From a virus, in IMG/VR virus record IMGVR_UViG_3300020034_000005, positions 1-64,000 of that record: a stretch of DNA of 64,000 nt, one strand, 5' to 3'. The position numbers were made by a program, and so were the translations under genes. Positions 30,754-54,505 of this stretch are shown here, piece after piece (positions within the stretch are counted from its first letter, which is position 1; each line of letters opens with the position of its first letter). Below the pieces are notes generated by a model, which had not been told where the DNA came from, made no database searches, and worked only from the letters and a program-made list of their open reading frames with translations.

Positions 30754-31015
30754 ACTCCCCGCCCGCGCGTCCGACGGCGGTCCCGCGGGCGGGGTCAACC
30801 GCTTCACCGGTGGCCTAGACCTCTGCTGTTGATGAAGGCTCTGGCCAGCGGTTTATACGGTGCGCGATCAGTTCACACCCCCTGAGTGCCGTGTGCATAT
30901 ATCTGCATGTAGGCGCCCTTGCGCTTACCGTCACAACAAGGAATGGTCAAGGCAAAGAAGCTGACTCCCCAGTCAGCTCATGCACCCCGGACCCCGGTGC
31001 GCGCGTCCATGCATG

Positions 31016-31243
31016 TCAGCTCAGGAGGTCCTTCACGTGCACCCGCAGCGCACGCGCGATCCGCAACAAGTGGCTGGTCTTCGACTCCCCGCCGTACTCG
31101 ATGCGCTGAATCGTGCTGCGGTCCAACTCCGACAGCTCGGCAAGCCGCTCCTGGGTCATGTCGAGGTACAGCCGGCGCACGCGCACGCGGTCGCCGATGG
31201 CCCGTCGGGCATCGAGGATCCACTGCGGCTGGTCGGCTGGCAT
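31016..31243 (-). CDS. XRE-family HTH regulator
   Basis: MTQERLAELSELDRSTIQRIE..LLRIARAL. Confidence 0.85.
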   Translation of the reverse strand: MPADQPQWILDARRAIGDRVRVRRLYLDMTQERLAELSELDRSTIQRIEYGGESKTSHLLRIARALRVHVKDLLS

Positions 31244-31417
31244 CAGACAAACGCTCGACCGCAGATGATCTTATGTCAGCAGCAGATTTGCGGCATCTTT
31301 CGATCATGAAGAGCTGACCGGGCGCCCCAGACCCCGCCGCCCGGTCTCACCACCCATACCGCTCCAGCCCTGCGGCGCTCTGGCATATGCCGCAGGGCTG
31401 GGGCTAGTGTCCATAAA

Positions 31418-31433
31418 TCGAACGTGCGTTCAC
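31418..31433 (+). promoter_or_regulatory. LexA (SOS) box just downstream of -10-like TAGTGT
   Basis: TCGAAC-GTGC-GTTCAC; preceded by hairpin 31364-31401. Confidence 0.6.
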
Positions 31434-31567
31434 TCGAAAGGATGAACAACCACGTGGGAACCGCATCCGTTGGACAGGGAAATTTGGTAGCGCTCTGGCT
31501 CAGGCCGGCGCGCCCACACGGGACCGCCGCTCCTGCCGCGGCGGTCCACGCCGACGGAGAGACACCG

Positions 31568-31798
31568 ATGACCCCCGACGCAATCCTCGCCCTCTACCCC
31601 TGGACGACCGGGTCGTGCTTCCGCTGCAGCGAGGACGACGTGTTCGTCACGCACATCGACGACATCGTCACCCCCTCCGGCGACGTCTACCGGCTGAGCG
31701 CCTGCGGCAGCTGCGTCATCATCCTCGAGACCGAGCGCTGGCGGCACGCCCTCCGCAAGGGAGAGGTGTACGAGCCGGGCCTACTCGGCGCATCGTAG
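31568..31798 (+). CDS. Small Zn-finger protein
   Basis: CFRC..ACGSC; GGAGAG RBS. Confidence 0.6.
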   Translation: MTPDAILALYPWTTGSCFRCSEDDVFVTHIDDIVTPSGDVYRLSACGSCVIILETERWRHALRKGEVYEPGLLGAS

Positions 31799-31876
31799 AG
31801 ACACCCCGCCCATCACGCCGCCCCGCAGACCGCGAGGCGGCTTTCCGCTGGAGACACCCTGGCGGAGGGCCCGTTT

Positions 31877-32155
31877 CTGGGGAGCGCCTGGGGAGAATCT
31901 GGGGGTGGGCGGCACCTGGGGAGAGGTGGATCGGAACCCAACGACCCACCATCGGAACTCAACGCAACGCATCGGAACAGTCAAAAGGGCAGTTCAGCAC
32001 CATCCCGCAAAACGATTGAGGGGAACCCGCAGGCCCAGGATGCACGGCTAACAAAACCCGGCGTACAGGCCGACTCGTCCGCTGTCTGAACCTCTGACCT
32101 GGGAACTCTTGCCGAGTTCCTAGATCAACTGGGGTGCTGGGGAGAATCTGGGGAG
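31877..32155. mobile_element. attP: CTGGGGAG arm-type repeats on both sides, ATCGGAAC repeats, rnpB-like core
   Basis: CTGGGGAG at 31877, 31888, 31916, 32137, 32148; ATCGGAAC at 31930, 31951, 31971; adjacent to integrase 3' end. Confidence 0.85.
32051..32083 (+). ncRNA. rnpB: Fragment resembling the 3' end of RNase P RNA (attP core), not a full gene
   Basis: ACAAAACCCGGCGTACAGGCCGACTCGTCCGCT resembles conserved region V and 3' P1 strand (ACAGAAYCCGGCKTAC..) of actinobacterial rnpB, recalled from memory. Confidence 0.75.
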
Positions 32156-32163
32156 ATCCATTT

Positions 32164-33501
32164 CTAAATGGAGTCCTCGGGCGCCTCATCCGCTCCACCG
32201 GCGTCATCCGAGCCGACGTCGGGGGTGAGCCACCGGCCGAGCGCCGTCAGCCCCATTGTCCCAGACGTCGGCAAGAAGTGGGCGTAGGTCCGCAACGTGA
32301 ACGCCGGATCTCCATGGCCGAGCCACGACGCCAGCTGAGTGATCGTCTCACCGGCCGCCAGCACGATCGACGAGAACGTATGGCGGGTGACGTGAAACCC
32401 GTCCTCCCGCGGCATGGCCCACTTCTTGCGCAGCGCGCGCTTGCCCTTCGCCGTCACGCTCTCCACGACCGTCGGCTCGGGCAGCACACCCGCCCGGCCG
32501 AGCGCCGGCTTCCACTGCTTCTCATCGAAGGTCGACCGGTTGATCGCGCCCCCGGCGCCGCCGTTGATCCTGGAGGTGACCACAAGAAGACGTACTGTCC
32601 GCATCGGCCGGCTCGTCCACGCGATGTTCGGCCGGTCGGGGTCAACCCAGCGCAGCGTCACCTCGACCGTGGGGTACGAGTTCGCGTACTCCTTCACCGC
32701 CGCGGCGAGCTCTACAGGGCACGGTGCGTCACGCAGCTTCCCCCGCTTCGGCGGGGCGAACGCCAGCTTCCCCCCGACCTTCACGATCTGCCGACGGACA
32801 TGGATGATCTCACCGTCGATGTCGTCGGGGGAGAAGCCGAAGCATTCGCCCTGACGGAGGCCGGCCGCCACGCCCAGGTCCAGCAGGATCCGGTAACGCG
32901 CATCGAGCCCAGCTCGCACAGCGGCCACAGTCTCTGGCGACCAGGCCTTTGCCGTCGACGGTGGTGACGCAGGCGGCGACAAGTCCTCGTCGCGGAAAGG
33001 GTTCTCCGCAATCCGCTTCGCCTTGTGCGCGGCCTGGAGAATCGACGAGAAGTACCGCCACGTGGTGCGCACCGTGTTGACGTCGACATCCTCCTCGACC
33101 CGGATCAACCAACCCTTGATCTCGTCCGAGCCGATGCGGTTCAGAGGCATGCTGCCCATGTGCGGCAGGATGTGCTTGAACACTCGCGGGCGCATCGACT
33201 CCTTGGTCGTCGGAGGCACCCGCAGGTTCGGCCACCACGTTTTGCGCACGTACTCGTCGAGGGTGATGTTGCCGTCCCGCGGGTCGTAGAACGTGCCGCG
33301 GGTCGAGTCGGTGGCGGACGCCTTCAACCAGGCCTTGGCCGGGACTTCCTTGGTGAACGAACGGTCGCGCACTCCGGGGATCCCGGCGACCCGCCAGCGT
33401 TTGCCCTTGCCGTGCCGGTCCGTGGGAACCCGGGTCGGCTTGCCCGTCTCAGGGTCTGCGGGGCCCTTCTTGTACCAGCGGTCCTCGATATACCCGGCCA
33501 T
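32164..33501 (-). CDS. int: Tyrosine integrase
   Basis: Arm-binding N-terminus; GLRQGE, PPK, FHVTRHTF, LGH, RTY catalytic motifs. Confidence 0.95.
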   Translation of the reverse strand: MAGYIEDRWYKKGPADPETGKPTRVPTDRHGKGKRWRVAGIPGVRDRSFTKEVPAKAWLKASATDSTRGTFYDPRDGNITLDEYVRKTWWPNLRVPPTTKESMRPRVFKHILPHMGSMPLNRIGSDEIKGWLIRVEEDVDVNTVRTTWRYFSSILQAAHKAKRIAENPFRDEDLSPPASPPSTAKAWSPETVAAVRAGLDARYRILLDLGVAAGLRQGECFGFSPDDIDGEIIHVRRQIVKVGGKLAFAPPKRGKLRDAPCPVELAAAVKEYANSYPTVEVTLRWVDPDRPNIAWTSRPMRTVRLLVVTSRINGGAGGAINRSTFDEKQWKPALGRAGVLPEPTVVESVTAKGKRALRKKWAMPREDGFHVTRHTFSSIVLAAGETITQLASWLGHGDPAFTLRTYAHFLPTSGTMGLTALGRWLTPDVGSDDAGGADEAPEDSI

Positions 33502-33733
33502 GACGCGCCCCCTTGAACGCCGGTGAGCGCGCCGTTATGACCTCGCCACGCCACAGTTGGAACCACTGTCCCCCGGCGAGGAGCTGCGTGACGGCCGAAT
33601 TGAGAGCCGCTACCCCTTCCGGGAGGAACAGTCCGCCGGCGAGCTCGTAGTTCACCCACCCCCGGCCTTCCTTGATACGGACGGGCGCGTCCTCGGAAAG
33701 GCTGGCCGACAACTCGAAGTTGATATTGAGCAC
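33449..33733 (-). CDS. Hypothetical protein between repressor and integrase
   Basis: ORF with RBS-like GGGGG; typical position. Confidence 0.5.
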   Translation of the reverse strand: MLNINFELSASLSEDAPVRIKEGRGWVNYELAGGLFLPEGVAALNSAVTQLLAGGQWFQLWRGEVITARSPAFKGARHGRVYRGPLVQEGPRRP

Positions 33734-33888
33734 GATCTACCCCCTCTGGGGCAATCAGGGAGGTGGGGGACCCCTGTGGTGAAAGTGTCCGGACCCGGAA
33801 ACATAACCCGACTTGGGTCGGTCTTCAACGGTCTGTTATGGATCCAGTTCAGGCATCAAGTAGAACCGCAGGCCAGCGACTTGTATGA

Positions 33889-34347
33889 CTATTCGGCGTC
33901 CCGTTTTGCGCGCTCGTCGGCCTCGATCATCGCCTTCCAGCGGCGGATCTCACCCTTCTCCATGCCCGCGAGGTGGGCGACGATGACGCGCACGTCCTCG
34001 TCGTAGCCGGCGAGCTCAGTGGCCTTGTAGTTCAGAAACTGGATCGCGGCGGCGCGCTGCACCACGGTGAGCGGCCTCTGGAGGCCGAAGGAGATGGCTT
34101 CCAGTCGCTCAGGAGTGGGGGCGGTGGCAATGGAGTTCGTGGCCATCTTCTGGAAATACGGCTTGGACAGCGGGACGCCGGCTGCTGCCGAGCGGTCGGC
34201 CATCTGCCGGTAGGAGACGCCGCGCCCGTCGTCGTTGATCTCGCGGATCATCTGGCTCAGGGCGTCGCGGTCCATGTCCCTGACAAGGTTGTCGGGAAGA
34301 CCGGACGTGGTGTCGTCGCGGGTGGGGGTGGGGGCAGGTGCCTCCAT
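33889..34347 (-). CDS. Putative immunity repressor (XRE-like HTH)
   Basis: VSYRQMADRS..LSKPY..PTPERLEAIS; divergent from cro-like gene. Confidence 0.75.
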   Translation of the reverse strand: MEAPAPTPTRDDTTSGLPDNLVRDMDRDALSQMIREINDDGRGVSYRQMADRSAAAGVPLSKPYFQKMATNSIATAPTPERLEAISFGLQRPLTVVQRAAAIQFLNYKATELAGYDEDVRVIVAHLAGMEKGEIRRWKAMIEADERAKRDAE

Positions 34348-34589: not shown

Positions 34590-34910
34590 TTGAACGTCCG
34601 CTATAACCTCCGCGCCCCACACATCCTGAGATGGGTGATGGATCACCCCGGGAGAGGGGTGCCCTACAGCACGCGAGAGCTCGCCAAGGAGATCGGACTC
34701 AGCTACCACAGCCTGATCGGACACCTCCTCACCGGCAAGCTCACCGACTGCCCCATCGAAGTCGCCCACCGCATCGCGGAGGTCACCGGCGTCGCCGTAC
34801 TGGTGCTTTTCGCGCCCCCAGCGTCTCCAGAACAGAACGAATCGGATCAAGACCGCAGTCGAAAGTCAGATGCGCTGCCCCCGCCCCCACCCCCAGGAGT
34901 ACCCCAGTGA
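34590..34910 (+). CDS. Cro-like HTH protein
   Basis: YSTRELAKEIGLS..IGHLLTG..AHRIAE..LF. Confidence 0.75.
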   Translation: MNVRYNLRAPHILRWVMDHPGRGVPYSTRELAKEIGLSYHSLIGHLLTGKLTDCPIEVAHRIAEVTGVAVLVLFAPPASPEQNESDQDRSRKSDALPPPPPPGVPQ

Positions 34911-35242
34911 CGAAGACCAGGAAGTTGGCCCAGCAGAAGCCCCCGCCCGGGGTTGTCTGGATCTACGACTACACGGACCCCGAGACCGGTGAAGTACTCC
35001 TCCCCGGAATCGCGACCCGTCTGGGCATCTCCCCGAACACCTTCCGGAAGTGGCGGATGGCCGACAAAGGGCCGAAGTCGTTCCTTCTCGGCAAGCCCGT
35101 CGCCGCGTTCATCGAGGACATAGACGCCTGGATCGCAGAGCAGGGCGGCCGGGAGTACGCGGCGGCAGTAGAGGCCCGCGCCGAGGGCCGGCCGCCGGAG
35201 CCCCGCCGCTCCACCGCCAAGCCGCTCGTACCTGCCGCCTGA
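34907..35242 (+). CDS. Excisionase / AlpA-like DNA-binding protein
   Basis: IATRLGISPNTFRKWR..GPKS..DIDAWI. Confidence 0.7.
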   Translation: MTKTRKLAQQKPPPGVVWIYDYTDPETGEVLLPGIATRLGISPNTFRKWRMADKGPKSFLLGKPVAAFIEDIDAWIAEQGGREYAAAVEARAEGRPPEPRRSTAKPLVPAA

Positions 35243-39146: not shown

Positions 39147-39661
39147 GCACCGTAGACACCGTGAAGGCCGTCGCCCGGCACCGGAAGCTGTCGTGGTTGG
39201 GCCTCGCCGCACTCGCCGGCGTGCAGGGCAAGGAGCTGAACACACTCCGGCCGCGGGTCGCCGAACTGGAGGCGGCGCTGGACAACGCGGCGTTCCGCCT
39301 CGACGGGGCCCTGCTCCTCGCCGGGGGGCTCCGCCTGCAGCTCGACGAAGCCCACGACATCCGCGACGACATCAACGCCAAGGCCGTCCGCTACGACGAA
39401 GCCGAACACCGTGCCACCGCAGCCGAGCAGCAGCTCGCCGCTAAGGACGAAGAACTGATCGCGCTCCGCCAGTTCAAGGCCAACGTCCAGTCCGTCGACG
39501 TCACCCAGCTCGGCCACCGCGACATCGACCCCGGCGACGCGGTCACCGTGCCCGTCCCGATCGTCAAGACGCTCGCCGAGGCGTTCGGCCAGGGCCGCGC
39601 CAGCACCGACCCCGCACGCACCACCTGGGGCCGCCGCAACGAGCAGGCAGGGGTGGCGTAG
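39143..39661 (+). CDS. Hypothetical coiled-coil protein
   Basis: GTGA coupling. Confidence 0.55.
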   Translation: MSTVDTVKAVARHRKLSWLGLAALAGVQGKELNTLRPRVAELEAALDNAAFRLDGALLLAGGLRLQLDEAHDIRDDINAKAVRYDEAEHRATAAEQQLAAKDEELIALRQFKANVQSVDVTQLGHRDIDPGDAVTVPVPIVKTLAEAFGQGRASTDPARTTWGRRNEQAGVA

Positions 39662-41076
39662 TGGACGCCTACTGGGAGGACACGGACGCCGGGATCACCC
39701 TGTACCTCGGCGACTGCCTCACCGTGCTGCCCACCCTGGCCGACGCGTCCGTGGACTCCATCGTCACCGACCCGCCCTACGGGTTGACCGAGTTGGCAGC
39801 CGCGACGGTTCTGTCAGCGATAGCCGCATGGATGGCAGGCGACCGGACGCACGTGCCGGATGGGCGCGGGTTCATGGGCCGCGAGTGGGATCGTTTCGTG
39901 CCACCGCCTGGTGTGTGGGACGAGTGCCTACGGGTCCTGAAGCCGGGCGGTCACGTGCTGGCGTTCGCTGGTGCCCGCACCGTGGACCTGATGACGCTGT
40001 CGATCCGCATCGCCGGGTTCGAGATCCGCGACAGCATCGACTGGATCTACGGCAGTGGCTTCCCGAAATCACACGATGTTTCCAAGGCCATCGACAAGGC
40101 GGCCGGGGCGCAGCGCGAGGTAGTAGGGGCAAGCGCGCATAGCGCTAACCGGTCGGCCGGTTCCTGGCAGGCGGACGGCCGGGCCCCTACGAGAATGGCG
40201 AAAGGCAACGAGGGGGAACGCCAGATCACCGCCCCGGCCACCGCCGATGCGGCCCGCTGGGACGGGTGGGGCACGGCACTCAAGCCCGCCCACGAGCCCA
40301 TCGTTCTCGCCCGTAGGCCGCTCTCCGGGACCGTCGTCGTGAACGTCCTTCAGCACGGCACCGGGGCCCTCAACATCGACGACTGTCGGACCGTCGCCGG
40401 GCAGGACTACCGGCAGAAGTGCGCGTCCGTGGTGGGCATCGACAGTCCCCGCAACGGCGACACCGGCGGCGAACGGACCGGGGCCCGGGAGGACTCCGCG
40501 CACGTTGCGGGCCGTTGGCCGACGAACGTGATCCTCACCCACCCGCCGCTCCTCGATGACGACGGGCAGGTCGTGGGAGACGCGTGCGCAGACGGGTGCG
40601 TACCCGGCTGCCCCGTCGCGGAGATGGACGCGCAGAGCGGGGGCAGCACCAGCGCAGCAAAGGGCAAGGCCGGGGGCGCCTTCAAGTCCACGAGCCTGTA
40701 CGCGCAGGACGCGACCTCGCGCGGCATGGCCCGGACCGAACGCCCGACACACGGCGACAAGGGCGGCGCATCCCGCTTCTTCACCGTCTTCCGCTACGAG
40801 GCGAAGGCCCCGGCCTCAGAGCGTCCCCGGCTGGCGGACGGCACCGCGCACACCACGGTCAAACCGCTCGCCCTGATGCGGTGGCTGATCCGGCTCGTCA
40901 CCCCGCCCGGCGGAGCCGTCCTCGATCCGTTCGTCGGCTCCGGCACCACGCTGGAAGCGGCCCTCATCGAAGGGTTCCCCGCCATCGGTATCGAGCGCGA
41001 AGCCGACCACGCCGAACTGTGCGTGACCCGGCTCGCCAAGCCCATCACGTCGACCCTCTTCGGCGCCACCCCCTGA
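39661..41076 (+). CDS. DNA amino-methyltransferase (N6-A/N4-C, beta class)
   Basis: VTDPPY catalytic motif; VLDPFVGSGTT SAM motif. Confidence 0.92.
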   Translation: MDAYWEDTDAGITLYLGDCLTVLPTLADASVDSIVTDPPYGLTELAAATVLSAIAAWMAGDRTHVPDGRGFMGREWDRFVPPPGVWDECLRVLKPGGHVLAFAGARTVDLMTLSIRIAGFEIRDSIDWIYGSGFPKSHDVSKAIDKAAGAQREVVGASAHSANRSAGSWQADGRAPTRMAKGNEGERQITAPATADAARWDGWGTALKPAHEPIVLARRPLSGTVVVNVLQHGTGALNIDDCRTVAGQDYRQKCASVVGIDSPRNGDTGGERTGAREDSAHVAGRWPTNVILTHPPLLDDDGQVVGDACADGCVPGCPVAEMDAQSGGSTSAAKGKAGGAFKSTSLYAQDATSRGMARTERPTHGDKGGASRFFTVFRYEAKAPASERPRLADGTAHTTVKPLALMRWLIRLVTPPGGAVLDPFVGSGTTLEAALIEGFPAIGIEREADHAELCVTRLAKPITSTLFGATP

Positions 41077-46662: not shown

Positions 46663-47636
46663 CCACCGCAACCAACGAACCGCCCGCACACGGGACCTAC
46701 GCCCGCGGCAACGGCGCCCCCGGCTACCGACCGCCGTGCGACTGCCCGCCCTGCCGCAAAGCCCGGCTGCGGACCAAGAAGCACAACAAGGCCATGCGAG
46801 ACCTCGGCAAGGGCGCCCGCGTACCGGCAGACCAGGCCCGCACCCGACTCCAAGCCCTCTGCCAGACCATGACGTGGGACCAGATCGCCGCGGCCACCGG
46901 CTGCGAACCCGGCAACCTCCGCCTGATCAGCTCGGGCAGGCGGGCCGCGATCAACCGCAGCACCCAGAACAAGATCCTCGCCGTGGCACCGCAGCCCCCC
47001 AGCGCGCGCGGCAAATACGTCGACGCCACCGGAAGCCGCCGCCGACTCCAAGCCCTCCGCGCACTCGGCTACTCCGCCCGCCACATCGCCGACATCGGCG
47101 GGTTCGCCACCAGCGAGAGCCGCGTACACACCATCTGCGCCACCCGCCAGCCCACCGTCCGCCACCACCTGGCCGCGAAGATCACCGCCGCCTACACCGT
47201 CCTCGCCGGAACACTCCCGCCGCCCAGCGCCGGAACCACCATCGCCCGCAACTACGCCGCGAAACAGGGCTGGGCACCGCCCGGGGCCTGGGACAACATC
47301 GACGACCCGGCCGCCGTCCCCGACTCAACAGGGCACTGCGGCACCGACCGAGGCTGGTGGACCCACCGCAATACACACCTCCCCGTCTGCCAGCGGTGCG
47401 AGGCCGCCCACCAGGAGTGGAAGCGGGACCACCAGCACCTGGCCAGGACCGAGTTCATGAAGGCCCTCACGGCCGCCCGCTCCGCCGCCTCCCACCGCGG
47501 CGCCGACATTGCCGACGACGGCCGCGAACTCATCCGCCACGGCTGCGACTACGACACCGCCGCCGCCCGCATCGGCGTCACCCGCCAACACCTCCAACAA
47601 GAACTCCAACGCCACCCCGAAGGAGCCGCAGCATGA
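46659..47636 (+). CDS. Multi-HTH DNA-binding protein with Cys clusters
   Basis: HGTY..CDCPPC, RRRLQALRALGY, GWAPPGAWDNIDDP motifs common in actinophages. Confidence 0.75.
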   Translation: MTTATNEPPAHGTYARGNGAPGYRPPCDCPPCRKARLRTKKHNKAMRDLGKGARVPADQARTRLQALCQTMTWDQIAAATGCEPGNLRLISSGRRAAINRSTQNKILAVAPQPPSARGKYVDATGSRRRLQALRALGYSARHIADIGGFATSESRVHTICATRQPTVRHHLAAKITAAYTVLAGTLPPPSAGTTIARNYAAKQGWAPPGAWDNIDDPAAVPDSTGHCGTDRGWWTHRNTHLPVCQRCEAAHQEWKRDHQHLARTEFMKALTAARSAASHRGADIADDGRELIRHGCDYDTAAARIGVTRQHLQQELQRHPEGAAA

Positions 47637-49321
47637 GCTACCGCAACGACGACGACGCGCTCACCGTCATGGACTGGTTCTGCGGGGCCGGCGGGTCTTC
47701 CCAGGGCATGCACTCGGTGCCCGGGGTGCGGGTGGAGCGGGCCGCGAACCACTGGGCCAAGGCCATCGAGTCGCACGCAGCGAACTTCCCCCTCGTCGAC
47801 CACTACCGCGGCGACATCCGCGAGGCCCCGGTCGAGCGGTGGCCCGTCACCGACATCTTCTGGGCCAGCCCCGAGTGCCCGCAGTGGTCGAACGCCCGCG
47901 GCAAGAAGCGGGACTTCGCGAACACCCTGCAGGGCGACCTGTTCGGCGACGGCGCCCCCTCCGAAGAGGTCGAACGCTCCCGCGCCCTCATGGAGGAAGT
48001 CCCCATGTACCTGCGCGGGGTGCAGCAGCGCGGCGGACTCGTCAAGGCGGGCGTCGTCGAGAACGTCGTCGACGTCCGGGCCTGGGACCAGTGGGACCGG
48101 TGGATCGGCGAGATCAAGAAGCTCGGGTACGAGACCCGCACCATCGCCCTGAACTCCATGCACGCCGACCCGCGCACCGTCCACCAAGCACCCCAGTCCC
48201 GCGACCGCCTGTACGTCGCCTACTGGCACCAGTCCCTGGGCCGCACCCCCGACTGGAACAAGTGGCTCCGCCCGCGCGCCTGGTGCACCGGCTGCCAGGA
48301 ATGGGTGCGCGCCGTCCAGGTCTTCAAGGACCCCACCCGCGACATGGGCCGCTACCGCCAGCAGTACGTCTACCGCTGCCCTGAGGTGAAGTGCCGCAAC
48401 CAGATCGTCGAACCCTCCACCCTGCCCGCCGCCGTCGCCATCGACTGGAACCTCCCCGGCCAGCGCATCGGGGACAGGGCCAAACCGCTCGCCGACAAGA
48501 CCCTCGCCCGCATCCAGGCCGGCCTCGACAAGTTCGCCCGCCCCATGGTCGTCCCCGCTGGAGGGACCTGGCGCAACGACCCGGTGCCGCTCGACCAGCC
48601 CATGCCGACCCGCACCACCCGGGAGAACGACGGCCTCGCCATACCGCCCTTGCTCATCCCTGTTGAAGGACGGGACGGGAAGGAGCCCGCCTCCGCGAAC
48701 AACCCGCTCCGCACGCAGACCGCCCGCAACGAAACCGGCCTGGCCTGGCTGCCATTCATGGTCACCATGCGCGGCGGCGGCGACCAGCTCCGCGGTAAGT
48801 CCATCGGTGAGGCGCTCGGCACGGTCTCCGCGAACGGCAACCACCACGGGCTCGTCGCCCCGAACGTTCCCGCCATGGTCATGCGGAACAACGGCTCCAA
48901 AGGCGACGGCGGCGAACACTGCACCAGCGCCGCCGACTACCTCCGCACCATGACGACAGCCGGCCACCAGTCCCTCATCACCTGGGAGCACCTCCTCGTC
49001 CCCTACTACGGCACCGGAACCGCGCGCCCCGTCGCCGACCCGATCGGCACCCTGTCCACCCGCGACCGGTACGCCCTCGTCAAGGGCGACGTCGACATCA
49101 ACGACGTGCTCTTCCGGATGCTGGAGCCCCACGAGATCGGCCGGGCCATGAGCTTCGCCGACGAGTACGTGGTCCTCGGCAACAAGCGGGAGAAAGTCCG
49201 CCAGTACGGCAACGCCGTCACCCCGCCCGCCGCCGAAGTCATCGTCGCCGCCCTCGTCGAAGCCATCACCGGCGAAGAGATGTCCCGGCACGCGGCGCCC
49301 GAGCTGGCAGCCGCCGCATGA
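47633..49321 (+). CDS. DNA (cytosine-5) methyltransferase
   Basis: WFCGAGG, WASPEC, VENV, QSRDR, QYGNAV. Confidence 0.92.
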   Translation: MSYRNDDDALTVMDWFCGAGGSSQGMHSVPGVRVERAANHWAKAIESHAANFPLVDHYRGDIREAPVERWPVTDIFWASPECPQWSNARGKKRDFANTLQGDLFGDGAPSEEVERSRALMEEVPMYLRGVQQRGGLVKAGVVENVVDVRAWDQWDRWIGEIKKLGYETRTIALNSMHADPRTVHQAPQSRDRLYVAYWHQSLGRTPDWNKWLRPRAWCTGCQEWVRAVQVFKDPTRDMGRYRQQYVYRCPEVKCRNQIVEPSTLPAAVAIDWNLPGQRIGDRAKPLADKTLARIQAGLDKFARPMVVPAGGTWRNDPVPLDQPMPTRTTRENDGLAIPPLLIPVEGRDGKEPASANNPLRTQTARNETGLAWLPFMVTMRGGGDQLRGKSIGEALGTVSANGNHHGLVAPNVPAMVMRNNGSKGDGGEHCTSAADYLRTMTTAGHQSLITWEHLLVPYYGTGTARPVADPIGTLSTRDRYALVKGDVDINDVLFRMLEPHEIGRAMSFADEYVVLGNKREKVRQYGNAVTPPAAEVIVAALVEAITGEEMSRHAAPELAAAA

Positions 49322-53615: not shown

Positions 53616-54505
53616 GCGAGCAGCCGCCCTACTACCAGGACGAGCAAGTGACGCTCCTCCTCGGCGACGCGCTGGAGCAGCTGCGTACCCTCCCCGACGG
53701 GTCCGTGGACTGCATCGTCACCAGCCCGCCCTACTACGGGCTCCGCTCATACGGCATCGACGGGCAGTACGGGCTGGAGGCAACGCTTCCGGAGTATGTC
53801 GCCACCATGCGTGCCGTATTCACCGAAGCGCGCCGGGTGTTGACCGATGACGGAACGCTGTGGTTGAACCTCGGCGACTCCTACAGCGCTGGCGGGCAAG
53901 GCGGCAACCGCGGCGGCAGGCTCATAGGCGGCGCACACCTGGATCGCGTCCCCGGTCGAACCCGGGTCCCAGGCTTCGCCCCGAAAAACCTGCTCATGAT
54001 TCCGGCGCGGGTAGCCATGGCGCTCCAGGACGACGGATGGGTCCTCCGTAACGAGATCGCCTGGCACAAGATCAACGCCAAGCCTGAGCCGGTCCGTGAC
54101 CGCATGTCCAGCAGGCACGAGAAGCTCTATCTGCTGACCAAGAGCCAGCGGTATGCGTTCAACCTTGACGCGGTCCGGGAGCCCTACACCTGCCCCAACG
54201 ACTCGCGGCTGAATCCGGAGCAGGTGGCTCGGGGCCGTAATCCCGGCGACGTGTGGGCCATCCCTACGGGTTCTTATCCGGGAGCCCATGAGGCTGTGTT
54301 CCCCATCGACCTGCCGCTGCGCTGCATTCGGGCTGGTTGCCGTCCTGGCGGAACCGTGCTGGATCTGTTCTCCGGGTCTGGGACGACGGGCGCTGCAGCC
54401 GTACAGCTCGGATGCCAGTACGTCGGTATCGACCTCAACGCGGCGTACCACGACCTCGCCAGAGAGCGGTTCACGCAGGGCGTTCTCGCGTTCGACACCC
54501 CGTGA
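53612..54505 (+). CDS. DNA amino-methyltransferase (SPPY, likely N4-C)
   Basis: VTSPPYYG; VLDLFSGSGTT. Confidence 0.92.
   Translation: MSEQPPYYQDEQVTLLLGDALEQLRTLPDGSVDCIVTSPPYYGLRSYGIDGQYGLEATLPEYVATMRAVFTEARRVLTDDGTLWLNLGDSYSAGGQGGNRGGRLIGGAHLDRVPGRTRVPGFAPKNLLMIPARVAMALQDDGWVLRNEIAWHKINAKPEPVRDRMSSRHEKLYLLTKSQRYAFNLDAVREPYTCPNDSRLNPEQVARGRNPGDVWAIPTGSYPGAHEAVFPIDLPLRCIRAGCRPGGTVLDLFSGSGTTGAAAVQLGCQYVGIDLNAAYHDLARERFTQGVLAFDTP

Follow-up and report, generated by a model that had tools for sequence, protein, structure and literature searches.

Tyrosine integrases commonly target the 3' ends of transfer RNA (tRNA) and transfer-messenger RNA (tmRNA) genes, as in mycobacteriophage L5, the Streptomyces phages VWB and mu1/6, and pSAM2, and the elements that integrate at such sites were reportedly surveyed by Williams in 2002. 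In phage attachment sites (attP) of the lambda type, the core is flanked by arm-type sites for the integrase (Int) and by sites for accessory proteins. Here we analysed a 64,000-nucleotide (nt) stretch of viral DNA, hereafter the window, which corresponds to positions 1-64,000 of the 90,308-bp contig C338, part of the assembly G000. Positions 31877-32155 of the window very probably constitute the attP of an unintegrated temperate siphovirus, 90 kb in size, of Streptomycetaceae-like actinobacteria. The core of this site matches the end of rnpB, the gene for the RNA of RNase P, and from the comparisons described below we consider it highly probable that the phage integrates at the 3' end of that gene.

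A stable RNA gene other than tRNA or tmRNA has been described as a target in Enterococcus phage phiEf11, which integrates into ffs (4.5S RNA), a site reported as a novel class of bacterial attachment site (attB) (Sci Rep 2025, PMC12540744). Among non-coding RNA targets known so far, that paper gives tRNA/tmRNA and csRNA and does not name rnpB (PMC12540744). The TIGER/Islander announcement sorts targets into tRNA/tmRNA, protein-coding and intergenic ones (PMC12424338). In our full-text literature searches, no paper was found that describes rnpB as an attachment site, with the limit that the supplementary target tables of TIGER/Islander could list it; those of the matches that were examined refer to rnpB only as an annotated gene or a phylogenetic marker.

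Results

The core matches the 3' end of rnpB

Positions 32051-32083 read ACAAAACCCGGCGTACAGGCCGACTCGTCCGCT, as a preliminary description of this DNA had stated, and the whole core (32051-32085, + strand) is a copy of the last ~31 nt of a type-A RNase P RNA followed by 4 nt of trailer, as judged from the alignment to the Rfam family RF00010 and from exact matches to rnpB ends. Conserved region V lies within it, as do the 3' strands of P4, P2 and P1, and the RF00010 alignment stops at 32081. In a permissive Rfam scan of positions 31800-32200 (401 bp), RF00010 was placed at 32008-32081 with 12.2 bits, although just the last ~32 model positions truly align. Since this score is far under the gathering score of 100, the core is a 3' fragment of rnpB and not a gene. 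Neither RF00010 at full length nor any other Rfam family at the gathering level was found anywhere in the window, and ARAGORN found no tRNA or tmRNA gene or fragment in it, so that there is no alternative target of that kind.

The E value of the Rfam match is only 0.086, which would also suit a chance resemblance in G+C-rich DNA. This explanation was refuted by an exact-match scan of the 23-mer 32057-32079 over 185,579 species genomes, which gave at least 120 loci. Among the matches listed, the 23-mer occurred in Streptomyces, Kitasatospora, Streptacidiphilus, Blastococcus, Modestobacter, Geodermatophilus and other genera, and 96 of the 122 occurrences end a full rnpB detectable by blastn; 22 others are second copies without rnpB, and the remaining 4 lie too close to the edge of their locus. 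Exact matches of 23 nt at no fewer than 96 rnpB ends argue against chance, as do the linkage of Int homologues to rnpB described below and the 0 hits obtained with backwards-read control patterns. Rfam found a full rnpB (262-300 bits) in all 9 of the loci where one was expected. In Streptacidiphilus carbonis (L029), a 291-bit rnpB is identical to 32051-32085 over 35 nt, including ACAAAA and CGCTGT. The likeness of the core to the 3' end of RNase P RNA, which the preliminary description had pointed out, is thus borne out both by the RF00010 fragment and by the exact 23-mer at rnpB ends, and the core matches in actinobacterial genomes, which it had proposed to look for, lay for the most part at full rnpB genes.

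One of the 22 copies without rnpB, L017, may be a divergent rnpB. A further form of the rnpB end among Streptomyces is ...CTCGTCCGCC.

Related integrases and prophages at rnpB

Adjacent to the core and convergent with it is a gene (int) for a tyrosine integrase of 445 amino acids (32164-33501, - strand), recognised by Pfam and PHROG profiles (PF00589, 33.1 bits with a cut-off of 27.1; PF22022, 28.1 bits with a cut-off of 27; phrog_1 integrase, E = 2e-33). Residues R216, H370, R373, H396 and Y406 are invariant across eight aligned homologues; from their positions and the consensus motif, we take them to be the R...H-x-x-R...H...Y residues of the recombinases. Pfam detected no arm-binding domain in the N-terminus. 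The relatives of this Int comprise 427 proteins at E ≤ 1e-20, many of them named Streptomyces, and the best is 80% identical.

We searched 301 genomes of the genus Streptomyces for Int homologues at E ≤ 1e-80, fetched 30 loci, and scanned the first 20 of these with Rfam. Homologues were present in 48 of the 301 genomes, and only part of them sit at rnpB. A core-like 35-mer (≤7 mismatches) was found within 1.5 kb at 11 of the 30 loci, including five of the six with at least 60% identity. At L144 and L145 (Int 73% and 72% identical), a complete rnpB lies ~80 nt from the stop codon of int and convergent with it, and the integrase homologues that the preliminary description had suggested looking for beside rnpB therefore exist. 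Rfam found no tRNA beside the Int homologues in the 20 loci scanned.

The rnpB genes of genomes G337 (Int 73%) and G186 (Int 72%) score 297 and 295 bits, respectively. A pattern search in five genomes detected a second core copy downstream on the same strand, at a distance of 61.7 kb in G337, 57.3 kb in G186 and 55.3 kb in G145. Rfam finds rnpB at the first core copy only of each pair, so that the full gene is at the left prophage junction (attL) and the core alone at the right one (attR). Thus, the features of elements that use the 3' ends of stable RNA genes are found here: the core is identical to the end of the target, the relatives are bounded by direct repeats, and the gene is intact at one junction, with the difference that the target is not a tRNA or tmRNA gene. 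The exact core at rnpB ends, the integrases of 72-73% identity behind rnpB and these flanked prophages support the earlier claim that the integrase targets rnpB.

To the right of attR in G337 there is a chromosomal gene that is conserved, with matches in 109 of 151 genomes (a tally that takes in the unpublished genome G194, used nowhere else). In G078, this gene lies 148 nt from rnpB, and the site is therefore an empty one; among the other nine genomes examined, rnpB is within 1.5 kb of the gene in two and not in seven. The position of int is not the same in all elements: in G145 and G179 it stands at the far end, pointing at the distal core copy, a second arrangement that also occurs in elements of 75-106 kb.

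More distant integrases were found at the same gene. In a tblastn search of Int against 120 core loci, eight gave matches, and five of these are integrases of ~26% identity that start 110-135 nt past the core on the opposite strand. Those checked by record title belong to Geodermatophilaceae; at one locus (L101), 4.8 kb separate the two core copies. The same target is therefore shared by integrases that are only distantly related. In the genomes behind L029, L064, L100/L070 and L044, the Int homologues are 22-48% identical and none adjoins the core, so the elements in those rnpB genes use other integrases. Twelve loci with Int of 47-49% identity (L155-L166) have no rnpB-like core within 1.5 kb, and these integrases presumably use another site. 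They form a sister integrase group, and Rfam scans of eight of the loci revealed no tRNA.

Repeats and a stem-loop around the core

The motif CTGGGGAG occurs seven times in the 64-kb window, which is an ordinary total (the mean in shuffles is 3.9, with 14 of 100 at 7 or more). Five of the seven copies, all on the + strand, are found within 279 bp, where ~0.02 would be expected at the window-wide density. They form the two clusters around the core, next to the integrase gene, that had been noted before, with three copies on the left and two on the right. The P arm (31877-31923, + strand) contains exact direct repeats at 31877, 31888 and 31916 and a degenerate CTGGGGGT at 31899, and the P' arm (32129-32155, + strand) contains a degenerate CTGGGGTG at 32129 and exact copies at 32137 and 32148, which is +82 and +93 from the start of AACCCGG.... 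The spacing of these repeats is 11 nt, and we regard them as candidate arm-type binding sites of Int. Three direct repeats of ATCGGAAC at a spacing of 20-21 nt (31930-31978, + strand), which are three of the four copies in the window, are candidate sites for an accessory protein, either an excisionase or a host factor.

The hairpin GGAACTC-N5-GAGTTCC at 32102-32120, which the sequence confirms as previously described, lies within a longer inverted repeat (32090-32135, + strand; arms 32095-32108 and 32114-32127) that would stand 3' of the rebuilt rnpB. The free energy of this stem-loop is -22.7 kcal/mol (z = -3.8), a stability matched by 1 of 200 shuffles. It is a candidate for a terminator or for a hairpin that protects the 3' end.

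This layout recurs in the related prophages and in free phages. Repeats comparable to the P arm are present 116-180 nt upstream of the core in attR of G186 and G337 and in attP stretches from IMG/VR, the left side in G186 and G337 carrying two to four copies of CTGGGGAG (or CTGGGGG) at 130-180 nt from the core. The +82/+93 pair (57 nt past the 25-mer used below) is found in attL of G186 and G337 exactly as in the window, attL of G337 has a hairpin at the same place, and CGGAAC triplets also occur in attR of G337 and at the end of a contig of G123. When IMG/VR was scanned with a 25-mer of the core that allowed slight degeneracy, 23 stretches were obtained. Of these, 13 carry the full +82/+93 pair, and the +93 copy is present in 20. 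An Int of 62-75% identity follows right after the core on the opposite strand in 18 of the 23, and four of the five stretches without Int have less than 250 nt of stored DNA downstream. A full rnpB is present in one of the 23 stretches and the rest hold just its last 34-49 nt, so most of them are attP sites of free phage contigs. The repeat motif is thus on both sides of the core, next to int, and kept in relatives, as in an attP.

Phages do acquire flanking DNA, and the identity of the core to rnpB begins abruptly at ACA; the rnpB-like stretch might therefore be host DNA picked up by imprecise excision, with the true core elsewhere in the int-proximal region. We regard this as very improbable, because the segment duplicated at both ends of two related prophages is exactly the rnpB-like stretch, and because the arm repeats stand at a fixed distance from that stretch in 13-20 of the 23 viral stretches.

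Predicted position of the crossover

The junctions of the G337 prophage provide information on the place of strand exchange. To the left of CTCGTCTG, attL and attR differ by C/T five bases before AACCC and by G/A in CCCG(G/A)CTC, and they diverge again right after CTCGTCTG. The G of the attL allele pairs with the C of the host's own 5' P1 strand (CGAGCCGGGC), where A would mismatch, and a related free attP (L218) combines the left alleles of attR (T and A) with the right flank of attL. Because of this P1 pairing and the alleles of L218, both polymorphisms stay with the left flanks, and the exchange is therefore placed within CTCGTCTG, in the last 8 nt of the gene (CTCGTCYG). By analogy with G337, the strand-exchange (overlap) region of the window phage is predicted to be CTCGTCCG at 32074-32081 (+ strand).

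Two other readings of these bases were rejected. The G/A polymorphism in G337 had been considered as a phage-derived base in rnpB, which is contradicted by the P1 covariation and by the attP of L218. The dyad CCGGC-GTACAG-GCCGA had been considered as a pair of core-type sites, and was dropped since it is not kept in the commoner CAGCCCGAC allele and the crossover maps 3' of it.

The preliminary description had also suggested that integration might bring a variant base (AAAA versus AGAA) into rnpB, and this is not supported. ACAAAA is a natural allele of rnpB, found in 3 of the 96 rnpB-linked matches listed (L029, L064 and L100, each 283-300 bits), and the crossover as mapped in G337 lies 3' of the A at 32054, so the AAAA base of the phage would end in attR and not in the ribozyme. 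In the integrated element of G062, the element's own core copy ends short of the AAAA/AGAA position.

In the related prophages described above, int, rnpB and the arm repeats stand in this configuration, and we infer that the window phage does likewise when it integrates. Int would bind the CTGGGGAG arm repeats on both sides as well as the core, and would recombine the core with the 3' end of the host rnpB, with the exchange in its last 8 nt. rnpB would stay whole, being composed of host sequence up to the crossover and then of the last few nt, the trailer and the hairpin of the phage. After integration, int would lie ~80 nt downstream of rnpB and face it, and attR, at the far end of the prophage, would consist of the phage's core copy followed by the displaced 3' trailer of the host. 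The earlier proposal that the phage replaces the 3' end of rnpB and its terminator is therefore retained for the last few nt, the trailer and the hairpin, but not for the whole of conserved region V.

On the minus strand, the core (32058-32073) makes a small stem-loop, TCGGC-CTGTAC-GCCGG, followed by GTTTTGTT with a tail to ~32048. No other terminator-like call came from the scan, and this one is located just downstream of int; the AAAA allele creates a T run on that strand and might help to terminate int transcription. Short motifs recur next to the core in other genomes as well: CTGACC(T/A)G is found within ~10-20 nt past the gene end in many rnpB genes and inserted elements (loci L015-L134), and its reverse complement, CAGGTCAG, ~15-30 nt ahead of the core in many flanks of second copies (attR type). 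The window carries CTCTGACCTGGG at 32092-32103. A shared terminator stem or a protein site are candidate meanings of such motifs.

The phage, its host and its integration state

The left arm of the phage encodes the large terminase, the portal, the major head protein and a tape measure of 1556 amino acids, the integrase gene and attP are in the middle, and the right arm encodes methyltransferases and a resolvase-like domain. Because phage DNA is on both flanks, 31877-32155 is attP and not attL or attR. In a tblastn comparison of 51 open reading frames (ORFs), C338 showed synteny over the whole contig with the 61.7-kb Streptomyces prophage of G337 (portal 74%, major capsid 72% and tape measure 63% identical). 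Four genes of the 64-90 kb part of C338 are located just upstream of the terminase in the G337 prophage; they are FtsK-like (60% identical), glycosyltransferase/methyltransferase-like (69%), methyltransferase-like (58%) and epimerase-like (75%). No terminal repeat was found in C338, which is ~30 kb bigger than the related prophages of 55-62 kb.

Several observations weigh against integration of the window phage at the 3' end of rnpB. Taken by itself, the Rfam score given above is weak, and among the matches listed, the full 35-nt match is present in one reference genome only. The crossover was placed from one prophage, that of G337. The hairpin at 32090-32135 lacks a T run, and the + strand drew no terminator call in the consensus scan. 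Apart from Int, the G186 prophage has little in common with the window phage, which means that the integration module moves between phages that otherwise differ. No lysogen carrying the window phage was found, the support coming from relatives and sequence matches. The stretch occurs in soil-metagenome runs, and the contigs of four such runs are of the attP form (X1 and X2, probably from the source sample) or are short fragments (X3 and X4), with no joint to rnpB. The X3 contigs break at 32065 and 32108, from which nothing was concluded at a coverage of ~3-5x and with no fit to a 31-mer repeat boundary, and the joints in X4 stem from relatives that are 90-95% alike. Finally, the 3' end of rnpB in G000 agrees with the core at only ~20 of 33 positions, G000 has no second core copy, and a DNA search of 60 relatives of G000 gave four short chance matches, none of them at rnpB.

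G000 is an assembly of 9.5 Mb in 338 contigs, 92.5% complete, with one rnpB (304 bits). As C338 is part of this assembly and their G+C contents are similar (65-72% along the window), the phage might belong to G000 and integrate into its rnpB in spite of the mismatches. We consider this extremely improbable: several of the mismatches fall in or beside the inferred overlap, close relatives of Int and of the structural genes are found in Streptomyces, and the source is a soil metagenome. Moreover, no WhiB-family match was found in G000, although absence from an incomplete genome is not proof; among the control genomes, only Corynebacterium, the actinobacterium, was positive. Since the rnpB of G000 is mismatched and no WhiB was found, C338 was probably binned with the wrong organism. 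The likely host is a Streptomycetaceae-like actinobacterium with an rnpB ending in ...ACA(A/G)AACCCGGCGTACAGGCCGACTCGTCCGC.

It might also be argued that the site is a relic, in that the phage once used rnpB and now either does not integrate or uses another site, with a lytic or episomal life. Only the attP form was seen, the bin that holds the contig has no matching attB, and the 90-kb contig is much bigger than the related prophages. This is nevertheless improbable in our view, since the integrase frame is intact and its catalytic-motif residues are invariant, comparison with the relatives shows conservation of all five exact arm repeats and of the distances between them, and an exact 35-nt attB exists in a reference genome.

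Neighbouring genes and other elements

The last gene of the left (structural/lysis) arm, directly left of attP, is an ORF with high G+C at third codon positions (31424-31798, + strand). It has no Pfam match, and its homologue of 55% identity is the final gene ahead of attR in the G337 prophage. A weak candidate for an excisionase or helix-turn-helix (HTH) gene lies at 34631-35242 (+ strand), where the C-terminal part alone matches PF12728 (HTH_17) with 18.8 bits, under the cut-off of 27; Pfam found nothing else in the ORFs neighbouring int, and this sub-threshold match is the only hint of an excisionase. The phage has at least two and possibly three methyltransferase-like genes (39661-41076; 46736-49321; L192:7222-8010, beyond the window), an FtsK/SpoIIIE-like gene (L193:6566-8755) and a nucleotide-sugar epimerase-like gene (L192:4329-5210). 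According to self-blast, the sole internal repeat of the contig is a direct one of 78 nt with 81% identity (39705-39780 and 53659-53734). Positions 31000-34000 had no match at the nucleotide level among 50,697 phage records.

Other elements at rnpB were observed in the course of the searches. The second arrangement, with Int of 49-66% identity in elements of 55-106 kb, was seen in G145, G179, G199, G250 and G322 (L146, L148, L151-L153, L173-L179 and L234-L244), and the distal copies of G250 and G322 are altered inside CTCGTCTG (CTCGTGTG and CTCATCTG). The complete Streptomyces chromosome G062 has an 11.8-kb element in rnpB (L187/L190, C1:5814140 and 5825933); its distal core copy shows a tandem duplication of GCCGACTCGTC, and no close homologue of the window Int adjoins it. 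In G174 (C59:199130-199439; L238/L243), two core copies, the second with 2 mismatches, are 283 nt apart, which looks like the scar of an element lost from behind rnpB. G064 (L185, L188 and L191) and G123 (L177, L182 and L183) have three core copies each, which suggests tandem or serial insertions at rnpB; the assembly of G123 breaks at the repeats.

Discussion

Our results point to rnpB as the target of a large clade of Streptomyces phage integrases. Beyond that clade, the ~26%-identical integrases of Geodermatophilaceae constitute a second, distant lineage at the same gene, and both prophages of 55-62 kb and int-distal elements of 75-106 kb are represented. With at least two distant integrase lineages, rnpB might be a general, so far undescribed integration hot spot of the Actinomycetota that ranks with the tRNA and tmRNA genes, a generalisation that we put forward tentatively and hold to be somewhat doubtful.

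If the proposed integration is correct, each insertion would rewrite the end of an essential ribozyme gene, including its last nucleotides, trailer and terminator, and lysogeny could alter the 3' processing or the level of RNase P RNA. The allele of the rnpB end (for instance ACAAAA, or CGCT versus CGCC) could in that case determine the range of hosts open to lysogeny by a given phage. The phage would also represent a new family of int-attP modules, whose attB is conserved, single-copy and essential, and which would be useful for vectors in Streptomyces and its relatives, where existing systems derive from phiC31, phiBT1 and VWB. In addition, island finders limited to tRNA and tmRNA genes would file rnpB prophages as intergenic, and phage-borne rnpB ends are open to mis-annotation as rnpB fragments or pseudogenes.

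Compared with the lambda attP, the region described here is alike in its size of ~280 bp, in the direct repeats on both arms at the spacing of a helical turn (11 nt), and in a second repeat family (ATCGGAAC, three copies) on one arm. It differs in that the motifs are unrelated and in that Pfam finds no N-terminal arm-binding domain in Int. The site of phiEf11 resembles ours in having a core 74 nt from the end of the integrase gene and identical to a stretch of an essential stable RNA gene that is not a tRNA gene, whereas the target (ffs), the phylum of the host and the integrase are different (PMC12540744).

The elements at tRNA and tmRNA 3' ends are alike in having int beside attP, a core that duplicates the 3' terminus of the targeted stable RNA gene so that the gene is rebuilt, direct repeats that bound the prophage, and arm repeats that flank the core. 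The integrases of mu1/6 and VWB are distant relatives of the window Int (29% and 25% identity, respectively). In contrast to those elements, the target here is the gene of the RNase P ribozyme, and the predicted crossover is at its very end, within the final 8 nt, and not in the anticodon or T loop. Taken together, the mechanism is the classic scheme by which tyrosine integrases use the 3' ends of stable RNA genes, and what differs is the target gene.

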